The notes: a model not told the origin generated them from the sequence alone. DNA of 40,409 bases from Planctomycetaceae bacterium (GCA_012965455.1 DTSG01000099.1:1-40409); one strand, 5' to 3'; numbered from the stretch's first letter, positions 3,746 through 36,186 are shown. A program made the numbers and translations.

Positions 3746-5329
3746 ATGGTCATGCGTTGGTTTTATTTATTATTATTGGGTGTGGCAGTTAACTTTTCGG
3801 CAGCCGCGGCTGAGCGATCCGACTTTGGTTTAACATTGCGATCGCAGGCGGCAACATCGGCCGAAAACATTCGCTTTCAAGCGCGCTACGATCAGCAGCA
3901 ATGGAAAGCCAGCGAAACCGCAGTGATCGTTTGCGACATGTGGAATCTTCACCACTGCCTGAATGCAACTCGCCGCGGTACAGAAATGGCCCCCCGCTTG
4001 AATCAGCTGCTCAAACAATCTCGTCGACAGGGCGCTCTTATCATCCATGCACCAAGTTCATGCATGGCGCCCTACAAGGATCATCCAGCCCGAGCCACCG
4101 CATTGAATGCTCCGGCGGCAAGCAATTTGCCCGCCGAAATCGACAAATGGTGTTATAGCATTCCGTCCGAAGAACAAGGCACCTATCCACTAGATCAATC
4201 TGATGGGGGCGAGGATGACGACTTAGTGGAGCATGCCGCTTGGGCCAAGAAATTAGCTGGTATGGGACTCAACCCCCGCAGTCCGTGGACAAAACAAACA
4301 GACTTGATCGACATTCATGATAAAGATGTGATTAGTGATAATGGCGTGGAAATTTGGAATGTGCTGCAACAAACAGGAATCAAAAACGTTGTGCTGGTTG
4401 GTGTGCACACAAATATGTGTGTGTTGGGCCGACCCTTTGGGTTGCGTCAAATGGCAAAAAATGGGATGAACGTAGTGCTGTGCCGTGATTTGACCGACAC
4501 CATGTACAACCCAAAAATGAAGCCGTTTGTGAGCCATTTCACGGGAACGGATTTAATCGTTGAGCATATTGAAAAATGGGTATGCCCGACGATAACGAGT
4601 GATCAAATTCTTGGCGGAAAGCCGTTTGTGTTTTCAACAGATACCAGAAAACACGTTGTTATCTTGATTGCTGAACGTGAATATCAAACAAATGAATCAT
4701 TACCGCGATTTGCTTTAGAGCATCTGGGGCAAGATTACAAAGTGACGATTGTTCATTGTGATGAAGATGGCCAAGGCGAACGCAATGCTTTACCCAATTC
4801 GATCCCAGCGATCACACAGGCGGATTTACTATTGATTAGTATTCGCCGCCGAGTTCTTCCACAGGATCAAATGCAGGCCGTCCGGCAGCATATTGAAAAC
4901 GGCAAACCTGTGGTTGGTATTCGCACGGCGAATCATGCGTTTTCGTTGCGCGGCGAAGCGCCCCCGGAAGGCCTAGTGGCTTGGGACAAATTTGATCAAG
5001 AGATTTGGGGAGGGAATTACGCGAATCACCACGGTAACGGTAAAACGACAACCGTGGCGGCGTTGTGCGAGCACGAGATTCTTAACGGTGTTGACCTCCA
5101 AGATTTCACCACGATAGGGTCGCTGTATCAGGTGAACCCGTTGTCGAGTTCTACACAGGCGATATTGTCAGGTACGATTCCTGACAAACCGATGGAACCA
5201 ATCGCCTGGACGAATAAGACAATTTTTGGAGGGCGAGCTTTTTATACATCACTCGGACAGATCAAAGATTTTGACACAAAAACCATGAATGTGTTGTTGA
5301 AGAATGCGATTGCTTGGGCTTTGAATTAA
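3746..5329 (+). CDS. Secreted fusion protein: isochorismatase-like cysteine hydrolase domain + ThuA-like (trehalose-utilisation/GATase1-like) domain
   Basis: Signal peptide LLLLGVAVNFSAAAA. The N-terminal half has isochorismatase-family motifs (VIVCDMWNLHHC; VLVGVHTNMCVLG with the conserved Cys). The C-terminal half has ThuA-like motifs (VVILIAEREYQTNESLP, GKPVVGIRTANHAF, NHHG, PIAWTN, RAFYTSLG, NAIAWAL). The ATG at 3752 (MRWF..) is an equally plausible start and has better spacing from GAGGGG. Confidence 0.75.
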   Translation: MVMRWFYLLLLGVAVNFSAAAAERSDFGLTLRSQAATSAENIRFQARYDQQQWKASETAVIVCDMWNLHHCLNATRRGTEMAPRLNQLLKQSRRQGALIIHAPSSCMAPYKDHPARATALNAPAASNLPAEIDKWCYSIPSEEQGTYPLDQSDGGEDDDLVEHAAWAKKLAGMGLNPRSPWTKQTDLIDIHDKDVISDNGVEIWNVLQQTGIKNVVLVGVHTNMCVLGRPFGLRQMAKNGMNVVLCRDLTDTMYNPKMKPFVSHFTGTDLIVEHIEKWVCPTITSDQILGGKPFVFSTDTRKHVVILIAEREYQTNESLPRFALEHLGQDYKVTIVHCDEDGQGERNALPNSIPAITQADLLLISIRRRVLPQDQMQAVRQHIENGKPVVGIRTANHAFSLRGEAPPEGLVAWDKFDQEIWGGNYANHHGNGKTTTVAALCEHEILNGVDLQDFTTIGSLYQVNPLSSSTQAILSGTIPDKPMEPIAWTNKTIFGGRAFYTSLGQIKDFDTKTMNVLLKNAIAWALN

Positions 5330-23814: not shown

Positions 23815-25022
23815 TGACCTATCTTCAAATTATGAGCGTTGCTCTGATGATGCTCTCGACCAGCGTTGTCGCTGACGAACTGCCGGATGTTTCCGATGAT
23901 CATTATCACCTGCGGGGATCGTTGACCAATAGCAAGTTTGTGTTTGAGTCTACCAAGCGGGGACATGTCGCCTTCATCGGCGGGAGCATTACCGAAATGA
24001 ACGGCTATCGGCCGTTAATGAGTGCTTATTTACAGCAACAATTTCCCGCAACCCAATTCACTTTTACCAATGCCGGCATTGCCTCAACATGTTCGATGAC
24101 CGGTGCGTACCGAATACAGCGGGACGTCTTATCGAAAGGTCCGGTGGATTTGTTGTTTATCGAGTTTGCTGTAAATGATGATCAGGATGCGGGATTTGAT
24201 TTTGCACATGCCGTACGTGGCATGGAAGGGATGATTGCTCATGTACGTCGACATAATCCGCAGGCGGATATCATTGTGACGCATTTTGCCAATCCAGGGA
24301 TGATGGACCGACTTCGTCAAGCTGAGATGCCAGTATCCATGGCAGCACATAATGCGGTTTGCAAACATCATCGCATTTCTACGAATGATCTATGCAGTGA
24401 AATTACCCAGTTAATTGATGCAAAAAAAACGACTTGGGCGATGTATGGCGGAGTGCATCCGAAACCTTACGGGAATGCGATTTGTCAATCGATGCTGGTC
24501 AAACTACTGCAGCAGGGGTGGGAAAAGCCAGTGACTAGGGTCACGTCTCATTTTCAGGCGGCGTCTCTGTTTGACGCCAAAAGCTATGTGGACGGACATT
24601 TTGTCAGTCCTCAAAAAGCTCAGCGGGGAACGGGTTGGCGGTTTTCGGAGCCAGCCTGGAAAGAGATCAAAGGAAGTTTTCGAAATCGATTTGGCGGCGC
24701 ACCGCTGCTCCACGGTCAAAAACCAGAGAGCGAATTTCGTTTTGCATTTGAGGGTACGTTTATGGGAGCTTTTGTTCTAGCAGGCCCCGATGCTGGAGTG
24801 GTTGAAGTACAAGTGGATGGCGGTTCATGGCGCAGCGTTAATTTTTACCACCGCCATAGCCGAGGCCTCCATTACCCACGAACCGTTGTTTTTGCCGAAG
24901 ATCTGAAGGCGGGTTCCCATGTTTTGACGGTACGGATTAGCAAGGCCACCGACGCGCGAAGTCGGGGATGGGCAATACGGATCATGGAATTTGCTGTAAA
25001 TGGTCCACAGATAAAGGACTAA
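23814..25022 (+). CDS. SGNH/GDSL-type hydrolase with C-terminal beta-sandwich-like domain, secreted
   Basis: ATG 23814 overlaps the DUF1501 stop by 1 nt (TGATG). Signal peptide: MTYLQIMSVALMMLSTSVVA. SGNH block I: FIGGSITEMNG. Block III: FAVNDD. Block V-like: GGVHPKPYG. Confidence 0.7.
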   Translation: MTYLQIMSVALMMLSTSVVADELPDVSDDHYHLRGSLTNSKFVFESTKRGHVAFIGGSITEMNGYRPLMSAYLQQQFPATQFTFTNAGIASTCSMTGAYRIQRDVLSKGPVDLLFIEFAVNDDQDAGFDFAHAVRGMEGMIAHVRRHNPQADIIVTHFANPGMMDRLRQAEMPVSMAAHNAVCKHHRISTNDLCSEITQLIDAKKTTWAMYGGVHPKPYGNAICQSMLVKLLQQGWEKPVTRVTSHFQAASLFDAKSYVDGHFVSPQKAQRGTGWRFSEPAWKEIKGSFRNRFGGAPLLHGQKPESEFRFAFEGTFMGAFVLAGPDAGVVEVQVDGGSWRSVNFYHRHSRGLHYPRTVVFAEDLKAGSHVLTVRISKATDARSRGWAIRIMEFAVNGPQIKD

Positions 25023-28000
25023 GGGGTGAGAGTCACCGCAATTTTCCCATTGGCACCTGGCATCGCTTTGATATTTTTGAACGATTGAGCCCAGCCTTTG
25101 TCCGGCTCACTAACAACGATGGTATATATTCCAGCGGCAAAGACTTTGGGACTGAATTGCCGACCGTTGATGCGAATTGTGTAAATGACTTCTGCTGTTT
25201 TGTCATTAACGACTTGGATGACCGGGTTATCGATATCCGTTTCAATCGTCGGTAAGAACGCGACAGCTTTACGTAGATAATTATCGGTTTGGTTAATGGT
25301 CTTAGGCCATCCAGGATAGGGCCGCGCTGTGGGGTCAGTTGGATCAGCAAATCTGGGCCAACATTCCATTTTTATTGTTCGTTTACCTTTATCCATGATG
25401 ACGATTCCATATCCAGGCATACCGTTGTGCAACGCCTTAGGTTCTCGGCCCATGTCCGGTCCAGGGTTGGTTGCCGCATAAACAGTTACTCGATTACCAA
25501 ATCCGTCAAAATGCTCGCCTTGCCACGTCGGTGCTCCCGGGGGACGATTTACTCCAGCAATTTTAGGTTGCCACATCCGCGGGTAAAAATTCGCAATAGA
25601 GGGCACGCAAAAGGACCAAATGGAATTATTATGTTCTTCCACTCCATGGTGTACGATGGTTGCCAAATGTTGGTCTCCCGCTAGGTGGAATGCGAATCCT
25701 TTACGCAGAGCACTAATCGCTTTATTGCGGCCCGTTTGTGGCCAACCGTTGGAATCTAGGTCGGCGATCAAGTACTGCAAACCCCCGCCATGATGTGTAG
25801 CCATGTTAGCGAAGATGGTCTGAGACAGCGCCATTTTCATGTCGGCTCCCTTCCAGTCGCCGCTCCAGTCCTCCAGAAATGTCAGCTGTCGATCGCCCAA
25901 TAGCTTTAATCCAGGGACGTCCGCTTTCAAGACATCAAACTCGGGATTGTTAATATGGTCTGGTCGAGCCGTTCCGGTTGGAGGTAGGCGACCGGCACAG
26001 CCAGACTTGAACTTGCGGTCTTCAAGGATAGCGAAGCTAATGCGGCCATAAGTCATACTGGTGTAGTACACGCCGATGCCTTGATCGATTTTGGTGGGGT
26101 CGTAAGCATCAGGTAAATGACTAGTTTGAGTGCGGTCGACCATCTTGACGAACTCGGCTGGGTGTACATATCCACCAAAATGATCTCGGACTGCCTTGCG
26201 ACCACCTTCGCCCCACACATTTCCCTGAAAGACATCGTGGTCGTCAGGGATCGTCACGGTGGGAATGTCGCGCGTGAGGTCTCGGTATGCCCACGACCAG
26301 AGATACCATTTGTAGAGATAATCTAAGAGGATGTTTTGAGTATCCGGGAACGTTGGGCTGCGACCTTCGTAAAGTTGATCGCCAGAGAAAAACAACACAT
26401 CGGGCTTGTGCGCTGTGACGTGGTCGGAGATCTCTTGATGAGGGAACCACATGCCGTTTCGCCAATCGAACGGTTGGCGTCCGATGTCGTGCGAGACATT
26501 ATGGTTACCCGTAAAGCCAGCGACGACGATTTGTTGTTTGTCGACCGGATCTCGACGGATCGTGCCCGCGAACACCGAGGTTTGTAACTGACCGCTGCGA
26601 TCGCGGGTTTCATAGACCACTCGATAGGGTGTCGTTTTATTCGATTCCCAATTATCAATCGCAAACGGTGCGGTATACCCAGGAACAATGATCGTAGTTG
26701 TCGCAACACGAACCCATTGGTCATCTCGTTGGATCTCTAAATGCGCTTCTTGAACGTCGTCGGCACCGATTGGCGCCAATTGCGCTGTTAATTTCAATCG
26801 CTGGCGACTTATTGTATGTTGGGCTCCGATTACGGGACCTAAGCGGCGTTGCGAAAATGCAGATATTTTATTTCCGCGCAATTGCCAATCTTGAAACCAA
26901 AATCGACATCCAGGATGTGTATCGGATGCCTGACCAGGGTGTGATACAAGTGCGACGTTTCCAATAAGACGAGTGGGCGCCGTTTTGTAAGAGAGGCTCT
27001 GGACGACGTCGCCACTGGCAATATTGATCAAGTCGAGTGTGAGTGTTGCCTGATCTTCCTCTGGACGTACGAAACCGTATAATCGTAAACGGTGTCCGGC
27101 CAGTGTATCTACGACAGGGGGAGCGGGTTCGACAACAGTGCCCTGTTGTCCCAAAGCATAGAATTCGGCCATCACGGTACTGGGTCGATCTAAATGCGAT
27201 GATAGCGCGACGAGTTTCAGAAATCGACCCTTAGCGGTTTCGCAGGATACTTGCTGGAGTTCTCCGCCTTCAGGCAGCGAACCAGCGGCAACGGGGTCGC
27301 CCCAAGTTTCGCCATCAGCACTTATATAAAATGCGTATTTTAGGATACGTCCGCTAACGTTGCTCTTCCGCGGCTGGTAGGCAAAGCCATTAATCACATT
27401 TGTTTGACCCATATCGATCGTAACGTGATGCGGGTGTTTAGGCTTGGCTGTTTTCCATTGCGTGTGCCAGATTGTATTGTCATTGCCGTCGAGGATATTC
27501 GCGGCTGGTGATCCGGTTTCAATACTATCAACATCGACGATCTTCCATTTCTCGCGGTTTAACGAGCCGCTGGGAACGTCGGCGACATACTGTAGAGTCC
27601 CGAGCTGTTCAAAATCTTGGATAATTAGGGAGCCGTTGGGGCGTACACCCGCGAGTATCCCCGCTCCAGGACCACGGTACTGGTGGACGATTGCTGCCGC
27701 CCGGTAGTCCATGGAATCGCCGCCGACACCGATTAAAAATCCAGCCAATCCATGTGGGTTTACGGTCGCTGGATTTTCATTCGCTAGGCCCAGAGTGATA
27801 TCTAGTTGAAATCGTCCCGCTTGGTCGTTTAATCGATGTGTCAGTGTATGCAAGGTGCGAACGCCGAGTCGAGATTGGCCGGCGATACATTCCAAGCGGC
27901 CATCACGCACGGCCCAATCTTGTAAACGGTTCGCCCAAAAGTCGGTGCCAGCCCAAGTTCGTGAGTGCGTGGAGGACCAGTTAAATGTATGGTCTTCAGC

Positions 28001-28057
28001 GGAGACGGATAAACATAATACAGCCGCAAAAAAAGCGACGATGGGAGATAGTTTCAT
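25019..28057 (-). CDS. PhoD-like metallophosphatase with an inserted F5/8 type C (discoidin) carbohydrate-binding domain, secreted
   Basis: Signal peptide MKLSPIVAFFAAVLCLSVSA. Discoidin signature: ILDGNDNTIWHTQW...HHVTIDMG...INGFAYQPR...YAFYISADGETWG. PhoD-like core: VVAGFTGNHN, FFSGDQLYEG, IPDDHDVFQGNVWG, HLAGDQHLATIVHHG. Confidence 0.75.
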   Translation of the reverse strand: MKLSPIVAFFAAVLCLSVSAEDHTFNWSSTHSRTWAGTDFWANRLQDWAVRDGRLECIAGQSRLGVRTLHTLTHRLNDQAGRFQLDITLGLANENPATVNPHGLAGFLIGVGGDSMDYRAAAIVHQYRGPGAGILAGVRPNGSLIIQDFEQLGTLQYVADVPSGSLNREKWKIVDVDSIETGSPAANILDGNDNTIWHTQWKTAKPKHPHHVTIDMGQTNVINGFAYQPRKSNVSGRILKYAFYISADGETWGDPVAAGSLPEGGELQQVSCETAKGRFLKLVALSSHLDRPSTVMAEFYALGQQGTVVEPAPPVVDTLAGHRLRLYGFVRPEEDQATLTLDLINIASGDVVQSLSYKTAPTRLIGNVALVSHPGQASDTHPGCRFWFQDWQLRGNKISAFSQRRLGPVIGAQHTISRQRLKLTAQLAPIGADDVQEAHLEIQRDDQWVRVATTTIIVPGYTAPFAIDNWESNKTTPYRVVYETRDRSGQLQTSVFAGTIRRDPVDKQQIVVAGFTGNHNVSHDIGRQPFDWRNGMWFPHQEISDHVTAHKPDVLFFSGDQLYEGRSPTFPDTQNILLDYLYKWYLWSWAYRDLTRDIPTVTIPDDHDVFQGNVWGEGGRKAVRDHFGGYVHPAEFVKMVDRTQTSHLPDAYDPTKIDQGIGVYYTSMTYGRISFAILEDRKFKSGCAGRLPPTGTARPDHINNPEFDVLKADVPGLKLLGDRQLTFLEDWSGDWKGADMKMALSQTIFANMATHHGGGLQYLIADLDSNGWPQTGRNKAISALRKGFAFHLAGDQHLATIVHHGVEEHNNSIWSFCVPSIANFYPRMWQPKIAGVNRPPGAPTWQGEHFDGFGNRVTVYAATNPGPDMGREPKALHNGMPGYGIVIMDKGKRTIKMECWPRFADPTDPTARPYPGWPKTINQTDNYLRKAVAFLPTIETDIDNPVIQVVNDKTAEVIYTIRINGRQFSPKVFAAGIYTIVVSEPDKGWAQSFKNIKAMPGANGKIAVTLTP

Positions 28058-28132: not shown

Positions 28133-30001
28133 CTAGGGCAGTTCCAAGGCATTGCCATCATTGGCATTAAACAGATTGAGCCAAGTGTCAGTTGGTAGAT
28201 CTAGGTCCAATCTTTTGACCGCACCGTCCGCTAACAGTACGCTGGTTTTGTCATGACCTCTTAACCCAAGGCTGTCGAGCTCGTTTTCCCCAGTAAATAG
28301 AATGGGATCAGGTTTGGTCCACGGTGTTGCGTGGTCAGGGCCAACTGCGATAACGAGGCCAGTATTTGACGTCCCGTCCTTAATAGAACTAAACGTTTGC
28401 TTCGTTACTTGAGTCAACACTGAGCCTTTACAAACGGGCGCTCGATATACGGTTTTTGTTGTTAGTTCGGGATAACTAGGATGAAGATATACGTGGGGCA
28501 TGCGGTCTTGGAGTTTGATATTGTGATCACTGTCCCATGGCTCATTCAAATGAAAGGCAGCGTACAACTCCTGTTCTCCCACATAGGGCAAAATATGTAC
28601 CCGCCAGCTTAAAAGCGGTTTGCCGTCGGCAAAATGTACCGTGTTTGTTTCACCCGTTGGTAGCTGGTCATGACGATTGTGATAGTTGTGTAATCCGAGT
28701 CCGATTTCTTTGAGGTCATTACTTTCGTGCATCTGATTCGTCGCTTCCTTCGCATTTGCAATCCCCATTTTAATGAACTTAATAATCTGTGCACGTAACG
28801 CGTCATTGGTTTCTAAGGATACCGTAATGGTGTTGTCCGTTTTCGTCACACTAAGGTTTTGCACAAGTGTGTTGGCCATCTTTAGTGCCTCAATCATTTC
28901 TGGTTCGGCATTGGGGTTGGCTTCAAATTGCAGAACTTGATTTGGCAAAAGGCTCTTTCCAAGCGAAGCAAAGAAATTAACCTGTGTAAATACGTCAATC
29001 GTCGTTTCCTCATCGGGTGTCATGAGCTCGATGAAGATGGGAGTGTCAGAATCAGGGTTGATGGCAATCGCCGATGAACTAACATTTTTCATGAAAGCGA
29101 CTACGGGTGCAATCTGAGGTGTCTCGGCGAAAAGTTCGTCGAATGCCCAGTCTGGGACGGAGTCAAAAACCGACTTTGTTTCAGTCGCGACAACAAGCAG
29201 ATTATCTCCGCTCAGAGAGGAGACGAGCTCAGCTAGTGCGTTATCACCGCCTTTGCCAGCGACCATTTGCAATAGCTCAGGTTTCGACCCCAACATGATC
29301 GTGGAATTATCTTTGATGTGAACGGCAAACTCTTCGATAAAACTGTTTTGCCAGATGTCCCTGCCGTCTACCGTTGTCACTTCAAACCCACCTTCTTTTA
29401 ACCTGGCGATGAGTGATTCCGTATTCGCGTCGTCGAGTAACGTAATAACAGCTCCATACTTCATGGTGGGCGGTTTCTTATCATCGGCTTCAACGGTGGT
29501 TTCAGGAGCAGGTTGATTTTCATCTGCCGGTGCTGCTTCGATGGGTTCAAATGCGTTCCCTTGCCGCTCATATATAGTAGGTTCGTCAATTTGTTCCGGA
29601 ATGGGAATGCTACCGAGCACCAACACTCGATCGATTTGAGTAACAGCAATTCCCGTTTGGGTTTGTAATTGGCTTAGTGGATTTTGATTGCCTGGGGCGG
29701 TGGACAACATTGCTTCCATGATTGGAGCGACGAGTTTGGACGTCATGATTTTCGAGGGCCGGGCCAGAACAGCGACCTGGAAGTCATCTAGGATAACCGA
29801 AGTATCTGCTGAGTTACTACCATGGATGTTCGTTACTGGTGTTGTGCTCGGAGTATCTGTTGCACCTTCTGCATTTCCCGCCGTAGGGGCATCTATAACA
29901 ATTGGCGGTAGCGGTGTATCTTCGTCGGAATCACAACCGGCGATGAAGAGTGCCGACACAAGCAGTGGTAGAACAAGGAGATTGCGGTAGATGTTGCGCA
30001 T
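28133..30001 (-). CDS. Lipoprotein with an unknown ~430-aa N-terminal region and a C-terminal DUF1559/H-X9-DG-type domain (no prepilin leader)
   Basis: The ORF is open from 30100. ATG 30001 gives MRNIYRNLLVLPLLVSALFIAGC, with the lipobox Cys at 29933-29935. DUF1559-like region: NDLKEIGLGLHNYHNRHDQLP, LSWRVHILPYVGEQELYAAFHLNEPWDSDHN. C-terminal HDKTSVLLADG (H-x8-DG) at 28223-28255. Confidence 0.7.
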   Translation of the reverse strand: MRNIYRNLLVLPLLVSALFIAGCDSDEDTPLPPIVIDAPTAGNAEGATDTPSTTPVTNIHGSNSADTSVILDDFQVAVLARPSKIMTSKLVAPIMEAMLSTAPGNQNPLSQLQTQTGIAVTQIDRVLVLGSIPIPEQIDEPTIYERQGNAFEPIEAAPADENQPAPETTVEADDKKPPTMKYGAVITLLDDANTESLIARLKEGGFEVTTVDGRDIWQNSFIEEFAVHIKDNSTIMLGSKPELLQMVAGKGGDNALAELVSSLSGDNLLVVATETKSVFDSVPDWAFDELFAETPQIAPVVAFMKNVSSSAIAINPDSDTPIFIELMTPDEETTIDVFTQVNFFASLGKSLLPNQVLQFEANPNAEPEMIEALKMANTLVQNLSVTKTDNTITVSLETNDALRAQIIKFIKMGIANAKEATNQMHESNDLKEIGLGLHNYHNRHDQLPTGETNTVHFADGKPLLSWRVHILPYVGEQELYAAFHLNEPWDSDHNIKLQDRMPHVYLHPSYPELTTKTVYRAPVCKGSVLTQVTKQTFSSIKDGTSNTGLVIAVGPDHATPWTKPDPILFTGENELDSLGLRGHDKTSVLLADGAVKRLDLDLPTDTWLNLFNANDGNALELP

Positions 30002-30126
30002 AGTAATAGCTTTTTGGTGAGCAGAGAGAAGTAAGCACCGCGAGTCGTAGCGAGTACGCCCAGCGGAAATTATTATGGATTGAAATGGTTTAGATTTCAA
30101 ATCCCCGATGTTTCCTATTACAAGAG

Positions 30127-30951
30127 CTATTTTTCAGCAGTCAATACGCAGCGTAGACCCAGTGCGTCGTCTTTATGGTCAGCGGGAACGATAAAACGAA
30201 AGCTGCTAGTCAGCTTCAGCGGCTTATCTTTCCAGCTCCCGCCGCGCGCGATGCGAGTTTTACTCTTAGCGGTAATCCATGCGGAGCCGTCGGAGGGCGC
30301 TTGATCGTAGTCATTGTGACCAGTATCCAAACACCATTCCCATAAATACCCGTGGATGTCATAGAGCCCCCAGGGGTTTGGCTTTTTTGCACCGACTGGG
30401 GGATCGTTCCCCGCGGCATTTCCTGTATGCCATCCGTAGTCATTTAGTTTTTCCACGGAATTACCGAAGCTGTAGATTGTTTCCGTTCCCGCTCGGGCGA
30501 AATATTCCCATTCGGCTTCTGACGGCAAACGAACGACTTGGTTTCCCTTGATCAACTTTGCCTGTCTCATCAAGAGAGTTGTTTTTTGACAAAAATCTTG
30601 TGCCTCGGCAAAGGAGAGCATTTCAACGGAGTTTCGGGGTCCCTTCCATTTAGAAGGGTTACTGCCCATAACCGCTTCCCATAGGTTTTGCGGAATTTCG
30701 TAGCGAGCTACGGAAAAGCTATATGCGATGGCTACGCTGTGTTGGGGTTGTTCAAGCGACGCTGCAGTTTTGCCGCCACCCATTTGGAATGTCTTGCTAA
30801 AGTGTTTGGTGTCGGGCCCAATCGCAACAAATTCGCTGTGAAAAACCTTCAACAAAGCCAATTGGCTTTCGGTCGGTTGTTGTGCCTGAATGGTTGCCGA
30901 TGACAGCGCGCTGATCACAGTTGCAATCGTCAGAACGAGGCTTCTAGTCAC
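30127..30951 (-). CDS. FGE-sulfatase (SUMF1/EgtB/PvdO/GldK-like) fold protein, secreted, lacking the FGE catalytic cysteine pair
   Basis: The GTG start overlaps the floA stop (GTGA at 30948-30951). Signal peptide: [25 protein letters not shown]-fold motifs: [60 protein letters not shown]. No Cys-x4-Cys follows the RGGSW motif. Confidence 0.8.
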
Positions 30952-31958
30952 AATGGAGATCCTTCAGCGAACCCAATTTTTCCGGTTTGGAACGCGGTGG
31001 CCATTGCCAGCGGCACTTGGGCTTCCGCGAGTACTAGCTTGGCCCGATTGGCGACGACAGCTGCTTTCATTTCTTGTTCAACGGCGATAGCCTCTGCTCG
31101 ACGTTGTTCAGCTTGAGCCCGCGCGACCCGTGTGTCAGCCTCCGCCTGATCCGCTTGTAATCGCGAGCCGATATTTTCGCCGACATCGACATCGGCAATA
31201 TCAATCGAGACAATCTCAAAAGCGGTTTGTGAATCTAACCCTCGTTCTAGTACTGCCTTGGTGATCCTGTCTGGATTTTCAAGTATAGCGGCATGTCCAG
31301 TGGCGGATCCGATTGAGGAGATGATACTTTCACCGACTCGAGCAATAATTGTTTCTTCTGTTGCGCCCCCAATCAATTGTGTAAGATTGGTTCGCACGGT
31401 AACTTGAGCTCGTACTTTCAGCTCGACGCCATTACGAGCGACAGCACTTAAAAATGTTTTTCCGCTACGTTCTGGGTCGGGGCAATGAATGACTTTAGGT
31501 TCAACGCTGGTACGAACGGCGTCCACGACATCGCGTCCGGCAAGGTCGATAGCCGCGGCTTGATCAAATTCGAGATCGATGCCAGCACTATTGGCAGCAA
31601 CTAGTGCGTCCACGACACGTAATATATTGCCACCGGCTAAGTAATGTGCTTCAAGTCGTTTAGTGGTGACAATTCCGCCGTCGAGGACAGTATCGCCGAT
31701 AGCGTTCGCTTCGGTCGGCAGATTAGCCTGGACCGCTTGGATTTTAGCCCGCATCATGGCTTTTTGATTTACTTGTCGGAACCCCATGGTTACTAGTTCA
31801 AGTAATCCAATTTGCGCCCCACAATTAAAGCCCTCGAACCACAGCGCGCCATATTTCAATGCGATGATAAATAAGGATAATCCAAGGATGCCCAAAAACC
31901 CAAAGACAACGGTCCAAAGGACTCCCGTAGCATCCGCTAAAACAATAATATGTTCCAT
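30948..31958 (-). CDS. floA: Flotillin-like protein FloA (SPFH-domain, UPF0365/YqfA family)
   Basis: ATG 31958 lies 7 nt after GGAGG. The N-terminus has a TM hairpin. There is strong recalled similarity to B. subtilis FloA: [79 protein letters not shown]. Confidence 0.9.
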
Positions 31959-31996
31959 GGTCAAACCTCCGAAAAAATGTCTACTCCTAGATGATA

Positions 31997-32006
31997 CCCT
32001 ATAATG
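31997..32006 (-). promoter_or_regulatory. CATTATAGGG box (variant of TATTATAGAG) upstream of floA
   Basis: The reverse complement of 31997-32006 is CATTATAGGG, an 8/10 match to the box at 11963 and 19119. It lies 38 nt upstream of the floA ATG. Confidence 0.3.
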
Positions 32007-32035
32007 AATATCGATGTGTACGGTTTAATTGTCAA
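32007..32035 (-). promoter_or_regulatory. Candidate sigma70-like promoter for floA
   Basis: On the minus strand: a perfect TTGACA (complement of 32030-32035), a 17-nt spacer, then GATATT (complement of 32007-32012). This puts the TSS about 40-45 nt upstream of the floA ATG. Confidence 0.35.
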
Positions 32036-32068: not shown

Positions 32069-33100
32069 ATGCCAAAGGTGTCCAATGCGATTTGCCGCTG
32101 GAGTTCGTTAATTACAGCGAGTCTAGTATTTATTGTTGGTTGTAGTGAGGTTCGTGATTCCAATGAGGCAGTGCAGGCAAATACGGACCAGATGCTCGCC
32201 AACGATGGTAAGTCCCTTACGAAGGTGACATTGCAGTTAAATTGGTTTCCGGAAGCGGAGCATGGCGGTTATTATGCCGCGTTGGTACACGGATTTTTCG
32301 CTGCCGAAGGATTGGATGTAGAAATCATCCCCGGTGGGCCAGGAAGTCCCGTGATTCAAAAATTGGTTGCAAATCAAACAACGTTTGTGGTTGGTAACGC
32401 AGACCAAGTCCTGACTGGAAGAAACCAAGAAGCTGAAGTCACCGCACTGTTTGCCCCAATCCAGATGAGTCCGCGGTGTATCATGGTACATGCGTCTTCG
32501 GGTATCGAGCGGTTGGATGAACTGCAAAATATGACGGTGGCCTTGAGTGCGGGTCGAGCGTTTGCATTGTATATGCAGAAAAAATTATCGCTGAAGGGTG
32601 TCCGAGTGGTCGGTTATCCAGGCAGCATGGCTGTCTTTTTAAATGACAAGAATTTTGCCCAGCAAGGATACGTGTTCAGCGAACCATTCCTTGCTGAACA
32701 GCAAGGTGGTGATCCGCATGTATTGATGGTTTCGGAATTAGGGTTTAATCCCTATGCGAGCTTGCTAATAACCCGTAGTGATACAGTTGACGCTCAGCCC
32801 CAGTTGGTTGCAGCGATGGTTCGTGCAAGCAAGCAAGGATGGCAAACGTATTTAGAGTCCCCCGAGAAAACAAATGCAGCGATCCATCAACAGAATGAAG
32901 AGATGGGGCTAGAGATTCTAGACTATGGCGCTACCGTGCTTAAGGACTTGTGCTTGCCGGATGCAATGCCTGCTGCACAGTTAGGCGACATGACACTGCA
33001 ACGTTGGACCCAACTGCGAGATCAATTAGCAGAAATCGAGCTCGTTGATAAGAATTTGGATGTTAGTAAGGCGTTTACAACAGCAACTGGCCACGAATAG
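32069..33100 (+). CDS. ABC transporter substrate-binding lipoprotein, NMT1/THI5-like (nitrate/sulfonate/taurine/HMP family)
   Basis: Lipoprotein signal SLITASLVFIVGC. NMT1/THI5-like N-terminus: LQLNWFPEAEHGGYYAALVHGFFAAEGLDVEIIPGGPGSP. Confidence 0.8.
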   Translation: MPKVSNAICRWSSLITASLVFIVGCSEVRDSNEAVQANTDQMLANDGKSLTKVTLQLNWFPEAEHGGYYAALVHGFFAAEGLDVEIIPGGPGSPVIQKLVANQTTFVVGNADQVLTGRNQEAEVTALFAPIQMSPRCIMVHASSGIERLDELQNMTVALSAGRAFALYMQKKLSLKGVRVVGYPGSMAVFLNDKNFAQQGYVFSEPFLAEQQGGDPHVLMVSELGFNPYASLLITRSDTVDAQPQLVAAMVRASKQGWQTYLESPEKTNAAIHQQNEEMGLEILDYGATVLKDLCLPDAMPAAQLGDMTLQRWTQLRDQLAEIELVDKNLDVSKAFTTATGHE

Positions 33101-33105
33101 GCAAG

Positions 33106-34572
33106 CTACTCGCCACCCATTTCCGCTGCCCCTGACTTCGCAGATATCGCCTCGACTGGCGGATAATCTTCTTTGGACATGTGTGGTCCGGCCACGGAAC
33201 TAGCGGCACCTTGTCCGTGCGAGTGGGGGTCATTGTAGTGCAAGGATGCATAGTCGACATTGTTGTCTTCTTGGAACATATGCAATGTTTGAGTTGGAAA
33301 TGCAAATTGGATATCAAGTTTTTCGGCAAGCTTCATCACATCAATAAGCAAACGATGTCGCTCACGTAGTTCTGTCGGCCAATCGTCGCATTTAAAAAAC
33401 ATATACAGCAATATATCCACGCTACTCGCGCCGAAGCCGTTTAAGTACACCTGAAAATAATCTTTACGCGTATAAGGATGCCGGCGAATGATCTCGCGAA
33501 TTCCTTCACAAAATGCGTCTATTTGCTCGGGAGTTGTATCATATTGCACGCCAATGGAAGTGTTGAAGCGGCGAAATTCCCGGCGGCCCATGTTGTCTAC
33601 AACCGAGGTCGTCAGGCGACTATTTGGCAAGGTAATCAGAGAGTTATAAAAAGTTCGCACACGAGTACTTCGCATGCCGACGTTTTCAACCGTACCTTCG
33701 ACTCCATCAGAAACAATCCAGTCGCCGATTTCAAACGGGCGATCGGCCAAGACGGTAAGTGACCCAAACAGGTTGCTAAGTGTGTCCTGAGATGCAAACG
33801 CAAGAGCTGCACCCCCAAGTCCTAAACCACCAATGATGGCGGTTACTTCGAGGTCAAATACGTCTGCGAAAAAGATGATGCCAGTACAGACGGTGAAGGT
33901 CTTTAAACATTTTTGGATAAGCGGAACGAGCAAATCGTCAAATTTTGTTCTTGTGCCAAGTGCTTTGTGAGCAATAAACCCAGCGACCCAATCAATGATG
34001 CGAAAGGTTGTCCAGACAGCGGCAAAGACTGTAAAGAGTTTTAACCCGACGGCCAGCACTTTCATGAGTCCTAACGGGAAGCCAATGATCCATGAACCGT
34101 AGTACCACGTCGCCGCTTGTGCCAGCAAACCAATTGGCTTCCAAACTTTTCGCTCGGCGAGTTTATCCGATTCTGTATCCTCCTGGCGACTATGTTTTCG
34201 AGCGAACCGTACTAAGGCACTCAATATGAACCGAGTAGCCATATCGACAAACAAACCTAAGAACACTAATACAAAGCAACTGATCCACTGGTAGTGGGCC
34301 AGCAAAAACCGAGTTGTCAGCAGCGATTCGGGCATCTGTTCCCGAAACGTTTGCTTGAGGCTCTGGTATTTTTCCAACTCGCTGTCGAAGGCATTTGCTG
34401 TCGTTGGCGCGATGGCGGCGCTGTCTAACGCTGCACTATCGTCGTCGGAGCTTTCGCTGCTAGTGGAGGAGCCAAATCCGGGAATAAATTGAGCTTGTAC
34501 GGTCGTTGCACAACTGCAAACCAACCACAAGAGAATTAGATACTGAAAAGATTGTAGGGGTATCCGCCGCAT
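33106..34572 (-). CDS. MscS-family mechanosensitive channel with signal peptide and acidic/Ser-rich N-terminal extension
   Basis: Multiple TM helices. Conserved MscS pore/beta-domain motif: LSNLFGSLTVLADRPFEIGDWIVSDGVEGTVENVGMRSTRVRTFYNSLITLPNS. Confidence 0.85.
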   Translation of the reverse strand: MRRIPLQSFQYLILLWLVCSCATTVQAQFIPGFGSSTSSESSDDDSAALDSAAIAPTTANAFDSELEKYQSLKQTFREQMPESLLTTRFLLAHYQWISCFVLVFLGLFVDMATRFILSALVRFARKHSRQEDTESDKLAERKVWKPIGLLAQAATWYYGSWIIGFPLGLMKVLAVGLKLFTVFAAVWTTFRIIDWVAGFIAHKALGTRTKFDDLLVPLIQKCLKTFTVCTGIIFFADVFDLEVTAIIGGLGLGGAALAFASQDTLSNLFGSLTVLADRPFEIGDWIVSDGVEGTVENVGMRSTRVRTFYNSLITLPNSRLTTSVVDNMGRREFRRFNTSIGVQYDTTPEQIDAFCEGIREIIRRHPYTRKDYFQVYLNGFGASSVDILLYMFFKCDDWPTELRERHRLLIDVMKLAEKLDIQFAFPTQTLHMFQEDNNVDYASLHYNDPHSHGQGAASSVAGPHMSKEDYPPVEAISAKSGAAEMGGE

Positions 34573-34654: not shown

Positions 34655-35437
34655 TTATTGCTCGAGCTGAAAAGTCCAGCGAGCTAGCAGGGTGCGGCTG
34701 ATCACAGCAACAGCGGTGACCATAGTGACGCCGAGTAGTGAAGATAGAAAAATCGATGCAAATAAGACTTCGGTTTGAAAGTTTTGGCTGCTCATAAAGA
34801 TGTAATACCCAAGTCCCTGCTCATCGATCCCATGACCAGCCATGTATTCGCCAATAACGGCGCCAACAATCGTTAGTCCGCTGGAGATCTTTGCTCCAGT
34901 GACTAAATAGGGGATTGCCTGGGGTAACCGAACCTTGAAAAGAACTTGGTGCGGCGCTGCTCGGTACAATGTCATCAAATCTAACAGGCCTGTATCAACA
35001 CTGCGGAGGCCCGTCGTTACGTTTGTCACGATGGGAAAAAGGCTAATCACTGTGACAATAACAACAATACTGGCCATGCCGCCCCCAAACCAAATAATGA
35101 TCAACGGTGCGATGGCGACGATAGGAACTGTCTGCAAAAAGATCATATATGGGTATACGCCTCGGCGAGCAATTTTGGAAACGGAGAATAACAAGCCGAA
35201 GGTCGTTCCAATCGCCAAGGCCAAGGCAAATCCCGCAAGGGCTGCTTGTGCGGTTATCAGCGTTGCACTCAATAAATCGTCCATTCGCTGGATGCTGATG
35301 GTTATGATTTCCCAAGGACTAGGCAGCAGAATCCGAGGGATCTTCCATATCCAGTCCGCAGCTTGCCACACCGCTAAGAGCAGCAACAAAAATAGTATTG
35401 GGTAGAGGACTACCGAAATCGGGGGTTTCGTTTTCAT
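34655..35437 (-). CDS. ABC transporter permease (SsuC/TauC/ThiX-like, BPD_transp_1)
   Basis: 260-aa polytopic membrane ORF. The start overlaps the ATPase stop (ATGA at 34534-style coupling, here 35434-35437). Its size and architecture are typical of the permease of NMT1-type importers. Confidence 0.85.
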   Translation of the reverse strand: MKTKPPISVVLYPILFLLLLLAVWQAADWIWKIPRILLPSPWEIITISIQRMDDLLSATLITAQAALAGFALALAIGTTFGLLFSVSKIARRGVYPYMIFLQTVPIVAIAPLIIIWFGGGMASIVVIVTVISLFPIVTNVTTGLRSVDTGLLDLMTLYRAAPHQVLFKVRLPQAIPYLVTGAKISSGLTIVGAVIGEYMAGHGIDEQGLGYYIFMSSQNFQTEVLFASIFLSSLLGVTMVTAVAVISRTLLARWTFQLEQ

Positions 35438-36186
35438 AAACCCTCCTGCAGGATACGAGTCACTGCGGCCGTCTTTTCAAGAAACGGAGGTGTATTGCGG
35501 ATGGCTGGGACTCGATCAATGGGCAAATCAATGGCAACATCACCACCCACGGTCCCGTTGGCGTTGAGTACTAACACTCGTTGACTTAGATAAACAGCCT
35601 CGGTGACATTATGGGTTACAAACAAGACCGTCATTTGTTGCGTTTGCCAGATGTGAAGCAGTTCTTGATTCAGTTGTTGCCGCAGTATTTCATCGAGTGC
35701 AGCAAATGGCTCATCGAGCAGCAACGCGTTAGGCTTCATCACCAAGGCTCGAGCAATGGAGACGCGCATCCGCATCCCGCCCGATAGTTCCCGCGGGTAT
35801 TTGTTGATATCGGTAGCGTCAAGTCCGACTAACTTCGCAACCTGTAGTATCCGATCAGACCGGTTTTCCGTAGATTGTTCTTCGAGTTCAAGCGGTAATT
35901 GAATATTGTCAGCAGCGCTGCGCCAAGGAAGCAGCGTAGGATCTTGAAACACAAAAGCTGGTTGTTCACCGCCAAGCTGAACCATTCCCGTGGTTGGGTT
36001 GGTTAGTCCAGCAACGCAACGCAACAATGTAGATTTGCCACAGCCAGATGGTCCGACGATGGAGACCCATTGACCAGCGGGGATGTCACAGGAAACAGAG
36101 TCTAATACTGTAGCGTCGCCGTACTGCATGCTTAGATCATCAATAGTGATGGCAGGTTTGCGTGACATAGAAATAGGCGTAGTCAT
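35434..36186 (-). CDS. ABC transporter ATP-binding protein (SsuB/TauB-like)
   Basis: Walker A: GPSGCGKST. ABC signature: LSGGMRMRVSIARAL. Walker B: LLLDEPFAALD. H-loop: VTHN. Confidence 0.9.
   Translation of the reverse strand: MTTPISMSRKPAITIDDLSMQYGDATVLDSVSCDIPAGQWVSIVGPSGCGKSTLLRCVAGLTNPTTGMVQLGGEQPAFVFQDPTLLPWRSAADNIQLPLELEEQSTENRSDRILQVAKLVGLDATDINKYPRELSGGMRMRVSIARALVMKPNALLLDEPFAALDEILRQQLNQELLHIWQTQQMTVLFVTHNVTEAVYLSQRVLVLNANGTVGGDVAIDLPIDRVPAIRNTPPFLEKTAAVTRILQEGL

Follow-up and report, generated by a model that had tools for sequence, protein, structure and literature searches.

Discussions of bacterial flotillins usually treat FloA and NfeD as a fixed pair. In the canonical nfeD-floA (yqeZ-yqfA) operon of Firmicutes and part of the Planctomycetota, floA and a single, closely linked partner gene form a short operon. 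FloA spans the membrane once, near its N-terminus, and continues into a PHB domain on the cytoplasmic side, where its coiled coil is bound by the OB-like domain of NfeD (PMC11222466). YqfA/FloA (SPFH5) has been placed in Firmicutes, Chlorobi and Planctomycetes, and some SPFH genes come without an identifiable NfeD (Hinderhofer et al., 2009, PMC2636767). Here, we analyze a stretch of 40,409 nucleotides from Planctomycetaceae bacterium (GCA_012965455.1 DTSG01000099.1:1-40409; the window, with positions counted from its first letter), in which floA is followed by a gene for an exported protein with the fold of the formylglycine-generating enzyme (FGE). This floA/FGE-fold pair is a previously undescribed form of flotillin operon. 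It resembles the canonical operon in that FloA belongs to the same FloA/SPFH5 family and is tightly linked to one partner in a short operon. The partner gene, however, lies downstream instead of upstream of floA, and encodes an exported FGE-fold protein instead of a membrane protein with a cytoplasmic OB domain. The author of the initial annotation was not aware of a description of such a module, and our literature searches likewise returned no paper on the pairing or on any link between flotillins and FGE.

The floA gene is located on the minus strand (30948-31958) and encodes 336 amino acids from the ATG at 31958, the likely start of an open reading frame (ORF) that spans 30948-31964 when counted from a TTG. 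The protein matches Pfam PF12127 (E = 3e-117, 391.5 bits, cut-off 34) and, as a full-length family match, the NCBIfam equivalog NF010186 (415.5 bits, above the cut-off of 393), so that its annotation as a clear FloA stands. An acidic N-terminal tail of about 12 residues is followed by one transmembrane helix (hydrophobic at about residues 13-35), the SPFH domain and an EA-rich coiled coil. This layout agrees with the N-terminal membrane anchor, SPFH domain and EA-rich coiled coil near the C-terminus described in PMC11222466, and the positive-inside rule applied to the sequence, together with the same study, predicts an N-out, C-in topology. A few residues are enriched in FGE-linked over other FloA proteins (for example, E291, 95% vs 26%; G61, 81% vs 19%), but this enrichment is inseparable from phylogeny and was not used.

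The partner gene (30127-30951, minus strand) encodes a C-type-lectin-like protein of 274 amino acids that matches the Pfam FGE-sulfatase family PF03781 (E = 3e-31). Its GTG start overlaps the TGA stop of floA in the tetranucleotide GTGA (30948-30951), exactly as first annotated, and a Shine-Dalgarno-like AAGGA motif lies 8 nt upstream. The N-terminus (about 30877-30951, minus strand) is a Sec-like signal peptide with predicted cleavage between IQA and QQ. A basic n-region, a hydrophobic core and small residues at -3/-1 followed by an acidic residue or Gln are found in all 32 aligned orthologues. The signal peptide of the window protein contains no lipobox Cys, and the mature protein is predicted to be periplasmic. 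None of the 32 orthologues has a Cys pair after GGSW, and the window protein has no CxxxxC anywhere. In FGEs, the two catalytic, Cu(I)-binding cysteines stand a few residues behind the GGS(W/F) motif (C336 and C341 in human FGE). Because this copper-binding pair is absent, the catalytic FGE reaction is excluded. The signal peptide, the fold and the missing catalytic pair are hence as originally described, but the label "Cys-less" is not, since C121, C207 and C268 are invariant in the 32-orthologue alignment. The family is strongly constrained, with a mean column identity of 65% and about 80 invariant columns, which include a family-specific N-terminal helix (LLKxFxxEF), and conservation runs up to the C-terminus. 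The orthologue group comprises hundreds of proteins with 55-66% identity over the full length, and all labelled members are from Planctomycetota.

Conservation of the pair was surveyed from both sides. A metagenome scan gave 80 loci with the closest FGE-fold relatives (54-96% identity), and one genome per GTDB species gave 80 floA loci, almost all labelled Planctomycetota (54-91% identity). On the FGE-fold side, floA lies directly upstream on the same strand in 53 of the 80 loci and is absent in 18, while 9 loci are too short to judge, i.e., the genes are adjacent in 53 of 71 informative loci. Clustering of the FGE-fold proteins at 80% identity yields 37 lineages, with floA adjacent in 20, not adjacent in 11 and unjudgeable in 6 (20 of 31 known). 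The neighborhood conservation that the initial annotation had proposed to look for is therefore present. The distance from the floA stop to the start of the FGE-fold gene has a median of 4 nt and is at most 120 nt in 48 of 52 cases; the 4-nt GTGA overlap is kept in 14/14 close relatives (88-96% identity). Co-transcription of the two genes is probable from this arrangement.

The genes that flank the pair differ among lineages, with at least 10 kinds upstream (including NMT1, MscS, mnmA, an esterase and threonyl-tRNA synthetase) and at least 12 kinds downstream (including GFO/IDH/MocA, HEAT-repeat, beta-lactamase-family, sulfatase, PAD_porph and zinc-ribbon genes). In neighbor-joining trees, floA-linked members spread over the whole FGE-fold family, and FGE-linked floA genes stand at no fewer than five separate places within a large nfeD-less clade. 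This scatter over both trees points to an old linkage. Recent shared synteny as the sole cause of adjacency was rejected on the 20 clusters below 80% identity, their varied flanks and the scatter in both trees. The pair thus behaves as an old operon that has been broken repeatedly and not as a local accident. The association is asymmetric: floA is adjacent with a probability of about 0.65-0.75 given a member of the FGE-fold family, and the FGE-fold gene is found with a probability of about 0.08 given a planctomycete floA, i.e., immediately downstream of floA in 6 of 74 informative species-level loci and absent in the other 68. The carriers of the pair are a subgroup of uncultured, largely marine, Pirellulales-like Planctomycetota.

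Taken together, we consider it rather probable that floA and the FGE-fold gene form a conserved two-gene operon whose co-expressed products act in envelope or membrane homeostasis, with the Sec-exported protein as a binding or structural factor or as a flotillin-dependent client. FloA would be an ordinary inner-membrane flotillin, anchored by a single transmembrane helix between a short periplasmic tail and the cytoplasmic SPFH domain and coiled coil. The FGE-fold protein would be exported by the Sec pathway and, after cleavage of the signal peptide, would be soluble in the periplasm. Both genes would be transcribed together and, in the lineage of the window, be translationally coupled through the GTGA overlap. 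The FGE-fold protein might then work with FloA in either of the two capacities.

Several observations weigh against a partnership of the two products. Only about 12 residues of FloA are periplasmic, and direct contact with a soluble periplasmic protein is thus hard to picture. An adjacent floA is missing in 11 of the 31 FGE-fold lineages, and the FGE-fold gene in 68 of the 74 planctomycete floA loci, so that the partnership is dispensable or able to act in trans. Furthermore, in one lineage (L103-L108) the two genes are 77 nt apart, and the spacer contains a GC-rich hairpin with a T-run behind it, which could be a partial terminator or attenuator that partly uncouples their transcription. The trees were built by simple neighbor joining and have no support values. 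Part of the conservation is shared ancestry, since many loci derive from related marine populations, and every cluster member that we looked up is a metagenome-assembled genome (MAG) or a metagenome, with no cultured carrier found. The hairpin and T-run were seen in L103 (844-922), L104, L106 and L108 and are clearest in L108.

Most planctomycete floA genes have no adjacent nfeD. In one planctomycete subgroup, many lineages have fixed another partner gene instead, which encodes an exported protein and lies close to floA or overlaps it. If the products cooperate, this would connect flotillin function with a periplasmic protein, and perhaps with mechanosensitive channels, and provide a handle on the role of flotillins in diderms, and one of the many orphan planctomycete FGE-fold proteins would be assigned a role. 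If they do not, the pair would still be a clean example of a persistent operon.

An AlphaFold2 model of the exported protein built on the 32 orthologues (predicted local distance difference test 86.9, predicted template-modeling score 0.84) matches the FGE fold overall with template-modeling (TM) scores of about 0.65-0.69. In Foldseek, TvpA is hit with E = 1e-17, PvdO with a TM score of 0.69 and true FGEs with E of about 1e-13 to 1e-15 and a TM score of about 0.64, while PorK is weaker. The family profile ranks PDB sequences in a similar way (TvpA, 114 bits; PvdO, 95; PorK, 70; true FGEs, 53). The protein reaches no curated family threshold: NCBIfam equivalogs are far below their cut-offs, with EgtB, SenA and OvoA under GldK. 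It belongs to the non-formylglycine-generating part of the fold, nearest to TvpA, PvdO and PorK. True FGEs (SUMF1, bacterial FGE) and pFGE/SUMF2 share the overall fold and the conserved WEW, RGGSW and GLRC motifs, and pFGE likewise lacks the catalytic cysteines. In contrast to true FGEs, the protein described here has no CxxxxC copper site, and its similarity to them is the weakest within the fold (53 bits).

TvpA of Treponema denticola (PDB 2Y3C), a target of a diversity-generating retroelement, is the best match both by profile and by Foldseek and is a ligand-binding, non-formylglycine-generating member of the FGE-type C-type-lectin fold. TvpA, however, is located on the cell surface as a lipoprotein and its C-terminal binding site is hypervariable, whereas the FGE-fold family is conserved to the C-terminus. 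This strong constraint suggests a specific conserved function or interface and not a variable ligand binding as in TvpA. No reverse transcriptase domain was found in the window ORFs of at least 150 amino acids, and no template repeat was seen, though none was searched for specifically. A retroelement target like TvpA was rejected on the conserved C-terminus and the missing reverse transcriptase. PvdO of pyoverdine maturation (PDB 5HHA) is likewise periplasmic with an FGE fold that lacks the catalytic Cys pair, and, along with TvpA, matches best in both sequence and structure (E = 3e-20 for the single sequence, 95 bits for the profile, TM score 0.69). It is not an orthologue, as the PvdO model NF051459 gives 96.8 bits against a cut-off of 500, and no pyoverdine genes are nearby. 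Assignment of the protein as a real FGE or as an orthologue of PvdO or PorK was rejected, because the scores stay below the curated cut-offs and defining residues are missing.

In an alternative reading, the two genes are co-transcribed but their products act independently. The periplasmic job of the FGE-fold protein would then be its own, for example pFGE/SUMF2-like binding or processing of sulfated glycans or sulfatases or a PvdO-like redox function, and its gene would merely share the floA promoter. We consider this unlikely. Pirellulales genomes are rich in sulfatase and FGE-family genes, and the window itself encodes a 923-amino-acid sulfatase and five DUF1501 proteins. In L003, L006, L126, L129, L144 and L164, a sulfatase gene lies one to three genes away from the FGE-fold gene, but by our rough estimate genomes with over 100 sulfatases would show such proximity about as often by chance. 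The best NCBIfam match is indeed PvdO, yet with 96.8 bits it stays far below the cut-off of 500. The very high sequence conservation would also suit an enzyme, and the FGE-fold gene occurs without floA in 11 of 31 lineages in varied contexts. Against these points stands the adjacency itself, which lasts over at least 20 lineages amid changing surroundings and would be unusual for functionally unrelated genes.

Among the neighbors of the pair, we found only one other recurrent association, with a gene of the MscS family of mechanosensitive channels (window, L102-L119, L125, L136, L140 and L148). In the window, the MscS gene (33106-34572, minus strand; Pfam MS_channel_1st, MS_channel_2nd and MS_channel_3rd) is on the floA strand, with a divergent gene for an NMT1/THI5-type periplasmic binding protein (32069-33100, plus strand; PF09084, E = 1.6e-31) in between. 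The latter belongs with the genes of an ATP-binding cassette transporter (permease and ATPase) at 34655-36186 and forms the other side of the 110-bp divergent intergenic region upstream of floA that had been annotated before and was recovered here. Of the 43 floA-FGE loci with enough upstream DNA, 10 have an MscS gene immediately before floA on the same strand, and in another 9, the window included, it stands one gene away. In L136 and L141, the order is rearranged to floA-FGE-NMT1-MscS and the MscS gene is still near. Moreover, in L125, L140 and L148, which have no floA, the FGE-fold orthologue directly follows a gene for an MscK-like channel of 1190 amino acids (MscS_porin, MscS_TM, MscS).

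The frequent nearby MscS gene would fit a role of the floA/FGE-fold pair in envelope homeostasis. It might also be read as the third part of a mechanosensing module, in which the flotillin tunes the channel and the periplasmic FGE-fold protein provides a link to the wall or to glycans. Animals offer a precedent, as the stomatin-family proteins MEC-2 and STOML3 tune mechanosensitive channels. We regard such a three-part module as distinctly unlikely. Most MscS-linked cases fall into one large FGE-fold clade and could be explained by shared synteny, the MscK-like cases are a single lineage, and only about half of the floA-FGE lineages have an MscS gene in the vicinity. From the floA side, an MscS homologue is found only in L007 and L008 among the 80 species-level loci, and our literature searches gave no link between bacterial flotillins and MscS. 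By analogy, one may go further and picture floA, the FGE-fold gene and the neighboring MscS gene as a trans-membrane mechano-homeostasis unit, with the flotillin organizing or gating the channel at the cytoplasmic face and the periplasmic lectin-fold protein coupling it to the wall or to glycans. This appears improbable; if true, bacteria would have an analogue of the stomatin-tuned channels, and its periplasmic component would be without known equivalent.

The initial annotation favored yet another role, namely that the FGE-fold protein may replace NfeD. In its full form, the FGE-fold protein, perhaps together with the lipoprotein encoded downstream, would be a lineage-specific scaffold in a periplasmic assembly opposite the FloA microdomain, similar to the lipoprotein ring that PorK/GldK forms in type IX secretion. 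No NfeD gene is indeed adjacent to this floA, as originally stated. A co-directional NfeD gene adjoining floA, which defines the canonical operon, is not found in the window, and tblastn detects no NfeD in the 40 kb or in any FGE-linked locus. Two profile hidden Markov models built from 16-20 planctomycete NfeD proteins and verified against Pfam also find none in the window or in FGE-linked loci, even at E <= 10. In the floA survey, NfeD genes are immediately upstream of floA in 9 of 74 informative loci and in one truncated locus, and there is none in the other 65. The nfeD-linked floA genes form one clade in the neighbor-joining tree, separate from the large clade with all FGE-linked floA genes. 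This separation and the tight, conserved spacing of the pair might be taken to favor a replacement. Yet outside the nfeD-linked clade an adjacent nfeD is generally absent, with or without the FGE-fold gene, and its absence beside the floA of the window is thus unremarkable. As 68 of the 74 loci have no FGE-fold gene, most nfeD-less floA genes do without it and the absence of nfeD calls for no such replacement. Furthermore, the two partners would work on opposite sides of the membrane, since the NfeD OB domain contacts FloA on the cytoplasmic side (PMC11222466) and the FGE-fold protein is exported.

The comparison with PorK/GldK meets similar difficulties. Both have a non-catalytic FGE fold and the GGSWKD motif in common, but PorK is one among several possible analogues and not the closest: the profile ranks TvpA and PvdO above it and the structural match is weaker (TM score 0.45-0.53). 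The GldK model TIGR03525 gives 65.5 bits against a cut-off of 350 and aligns with no more than the C-terminal FGE domain. PorK, a lipoprotein, has about 450-490 amino acids and extra regions, whereas the FGE-fold protein has 274 amino acids, a signal of the signal peptidase I type and no lipobox. No gld or por genes of type IX secretion are among the window ORFs that were scanned, nothing points to oligomerization of the FGE-fold protein, and the DUF1559 lipoprotein is not conserved with the pair. A functional replacement of NfeD is not supported, and a scaffold that takes over its role is very unlikely.

The lipoprotein gene (28133-30001, minus strand) starts at the ATG at 30001, 125 nt after the stop of the FGE-fold gene, and a promoter-like site lies in this spacer (30100-30072). 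It encodes 622 amino acids with a lipobox (FIAG followed by the lipobox Cys), an N-terminal region of 415 amino acids without a known family and a C-terminal DUF1559 domain (PF07596). The domain scores 85.2 bits (cut-off 23.3) over residues 449-546 of the 655-amino-acid ORF and covers only profile positions 2-108 of 268; no NCBIfam model matches. The earlier description as a DUF1559 lipoprotein with an H-X9-DG motif at a distance of 125 nt is accordingly right in the lipobox, the family and the distance, while the domain is partial and the motif (H-DKTSVLLA-DG) is H-X8-DG. In place of the N-terminal prepilin-type cleavage/methylation helix of planctomycete DUF1559 / H-X9-DG proteins, the protein has the lipoprotein signal FIAGC. 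Homologues occur beside the pair only in close relatives of the window and one sister group (L001, L008, L110), and in the closest relatives (L007, L087, L089-L097) the protein ends at about 420-470 residues without a DUF1559 domain. As a possible third member of the module, which the initial annotation had also considered, the lipoprotein was rejected: it is a neighbor that accompanies the pair just in closely syntenic relatives, the nearest of which lack DUF1559, and in some loci a GFO/IDH/MocA gene stands between it and the pair.

The lipoprotein region is variable in its own right. Residues 416-622, which include the DUF1559 part, are missing in the closest relatives despite 85-92% identity over the first 415 residues, whereas the window and L001, L008 and L110, which are more distant, have them. 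The GFO/IDH/MocA gene stands between the FGE-fold and lipoprotein genes in L001, L007, L089, L094, L095, L097 and L099 and is absent in the window, L087, L090, L091 and L096, a presence/absence polymorphism among populations of about 90% identity. Directly downstream of the lipoprotein gene, and at the same position in close relatives, lies a gene (25019-28057, minus strand) for a secreted protein of 1012 amino acids with F5/8 type C (discoidin) and PhoD-like phosphatase domains.

Upstream of floA, a GGAGG ribosome-binding site (31966-31970, minus strand) lies 7 nt before the ATG, as in the initial annotation, and is partly kept in relatives as GGAGG, GGAGA or AGAGG. The promoter-like region (31991-32035, minus strand) contains two overlapping consensus-like matches. 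The near-consensus promoter described earlier, TTGACA-17-GATATT (32035-32007), is present and agrees with the consensus at 10 of 12 positions. However, promoter-like matches are not enriched in the region (7 vs 5.7 +/- 2.6 in shuffles), and the GATATT -10 hexamer varies among 11 close relatives. The hexamers of the overlapping TACACA-18-TATCAT (32020-31991) are invariant in 12 of 12 sequences. The working promoter may be this second element or one of an unrecognized type. Across 12 related sequences, the spacer upstream of floA contains two invariant blocks, GGTACACAT and ATTATAG(G/A)GTATCAT.

The surveys also revealed other arrangements around floA. Canonical-type planctomycete loci have a gene for a long NfeD (about 750 amino acids; NfeD1b_N, NfeD_membrane, NfeD) and one for a short NfeD (about 190 amino acids) directly upstream of floA (L070, L072, L076-L080, L082 and L086). 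A Pro/Glu-rich protein of about 235 amino acids without a Pfam match is often encoded downstream in such loci (L073, L077-L080, L086). In 21 of 74 planctomycete loci (L009, L013, L016, L017, L025, L033, L041-L049 and others), among them anammox (Kuenenia-labelled) MAGs, floA is immediately preceded on the same strand by mnmA, the gene for a tRNA 2-thiouridylase. One MAG contig carries two tandem floA copies (L037, 6001-6870 and 7024-7929) with 63% and 57% identity to the window FloA. On a 12.7-Mb contig (L006, 6001-10423), an FGE-fold orthologue (58% identity) has no floA beside it, and three tandem AIM24-family genes and a gene for a sulfatase come after it.

Otherwise, the window has the usual content of Pirellulales, with the five DUF1501 genes, two PSCyt/PSD proteins, a double sulfatase and a PhoD-like protein; an Rfam scan of the whole window gave no matches. 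An ORF of 527 amino acids at 3746-5329 (plus strand) combines an isochorismatase-like segment with a ThuA (trehalose utilization) domain, which is an unusual combination.

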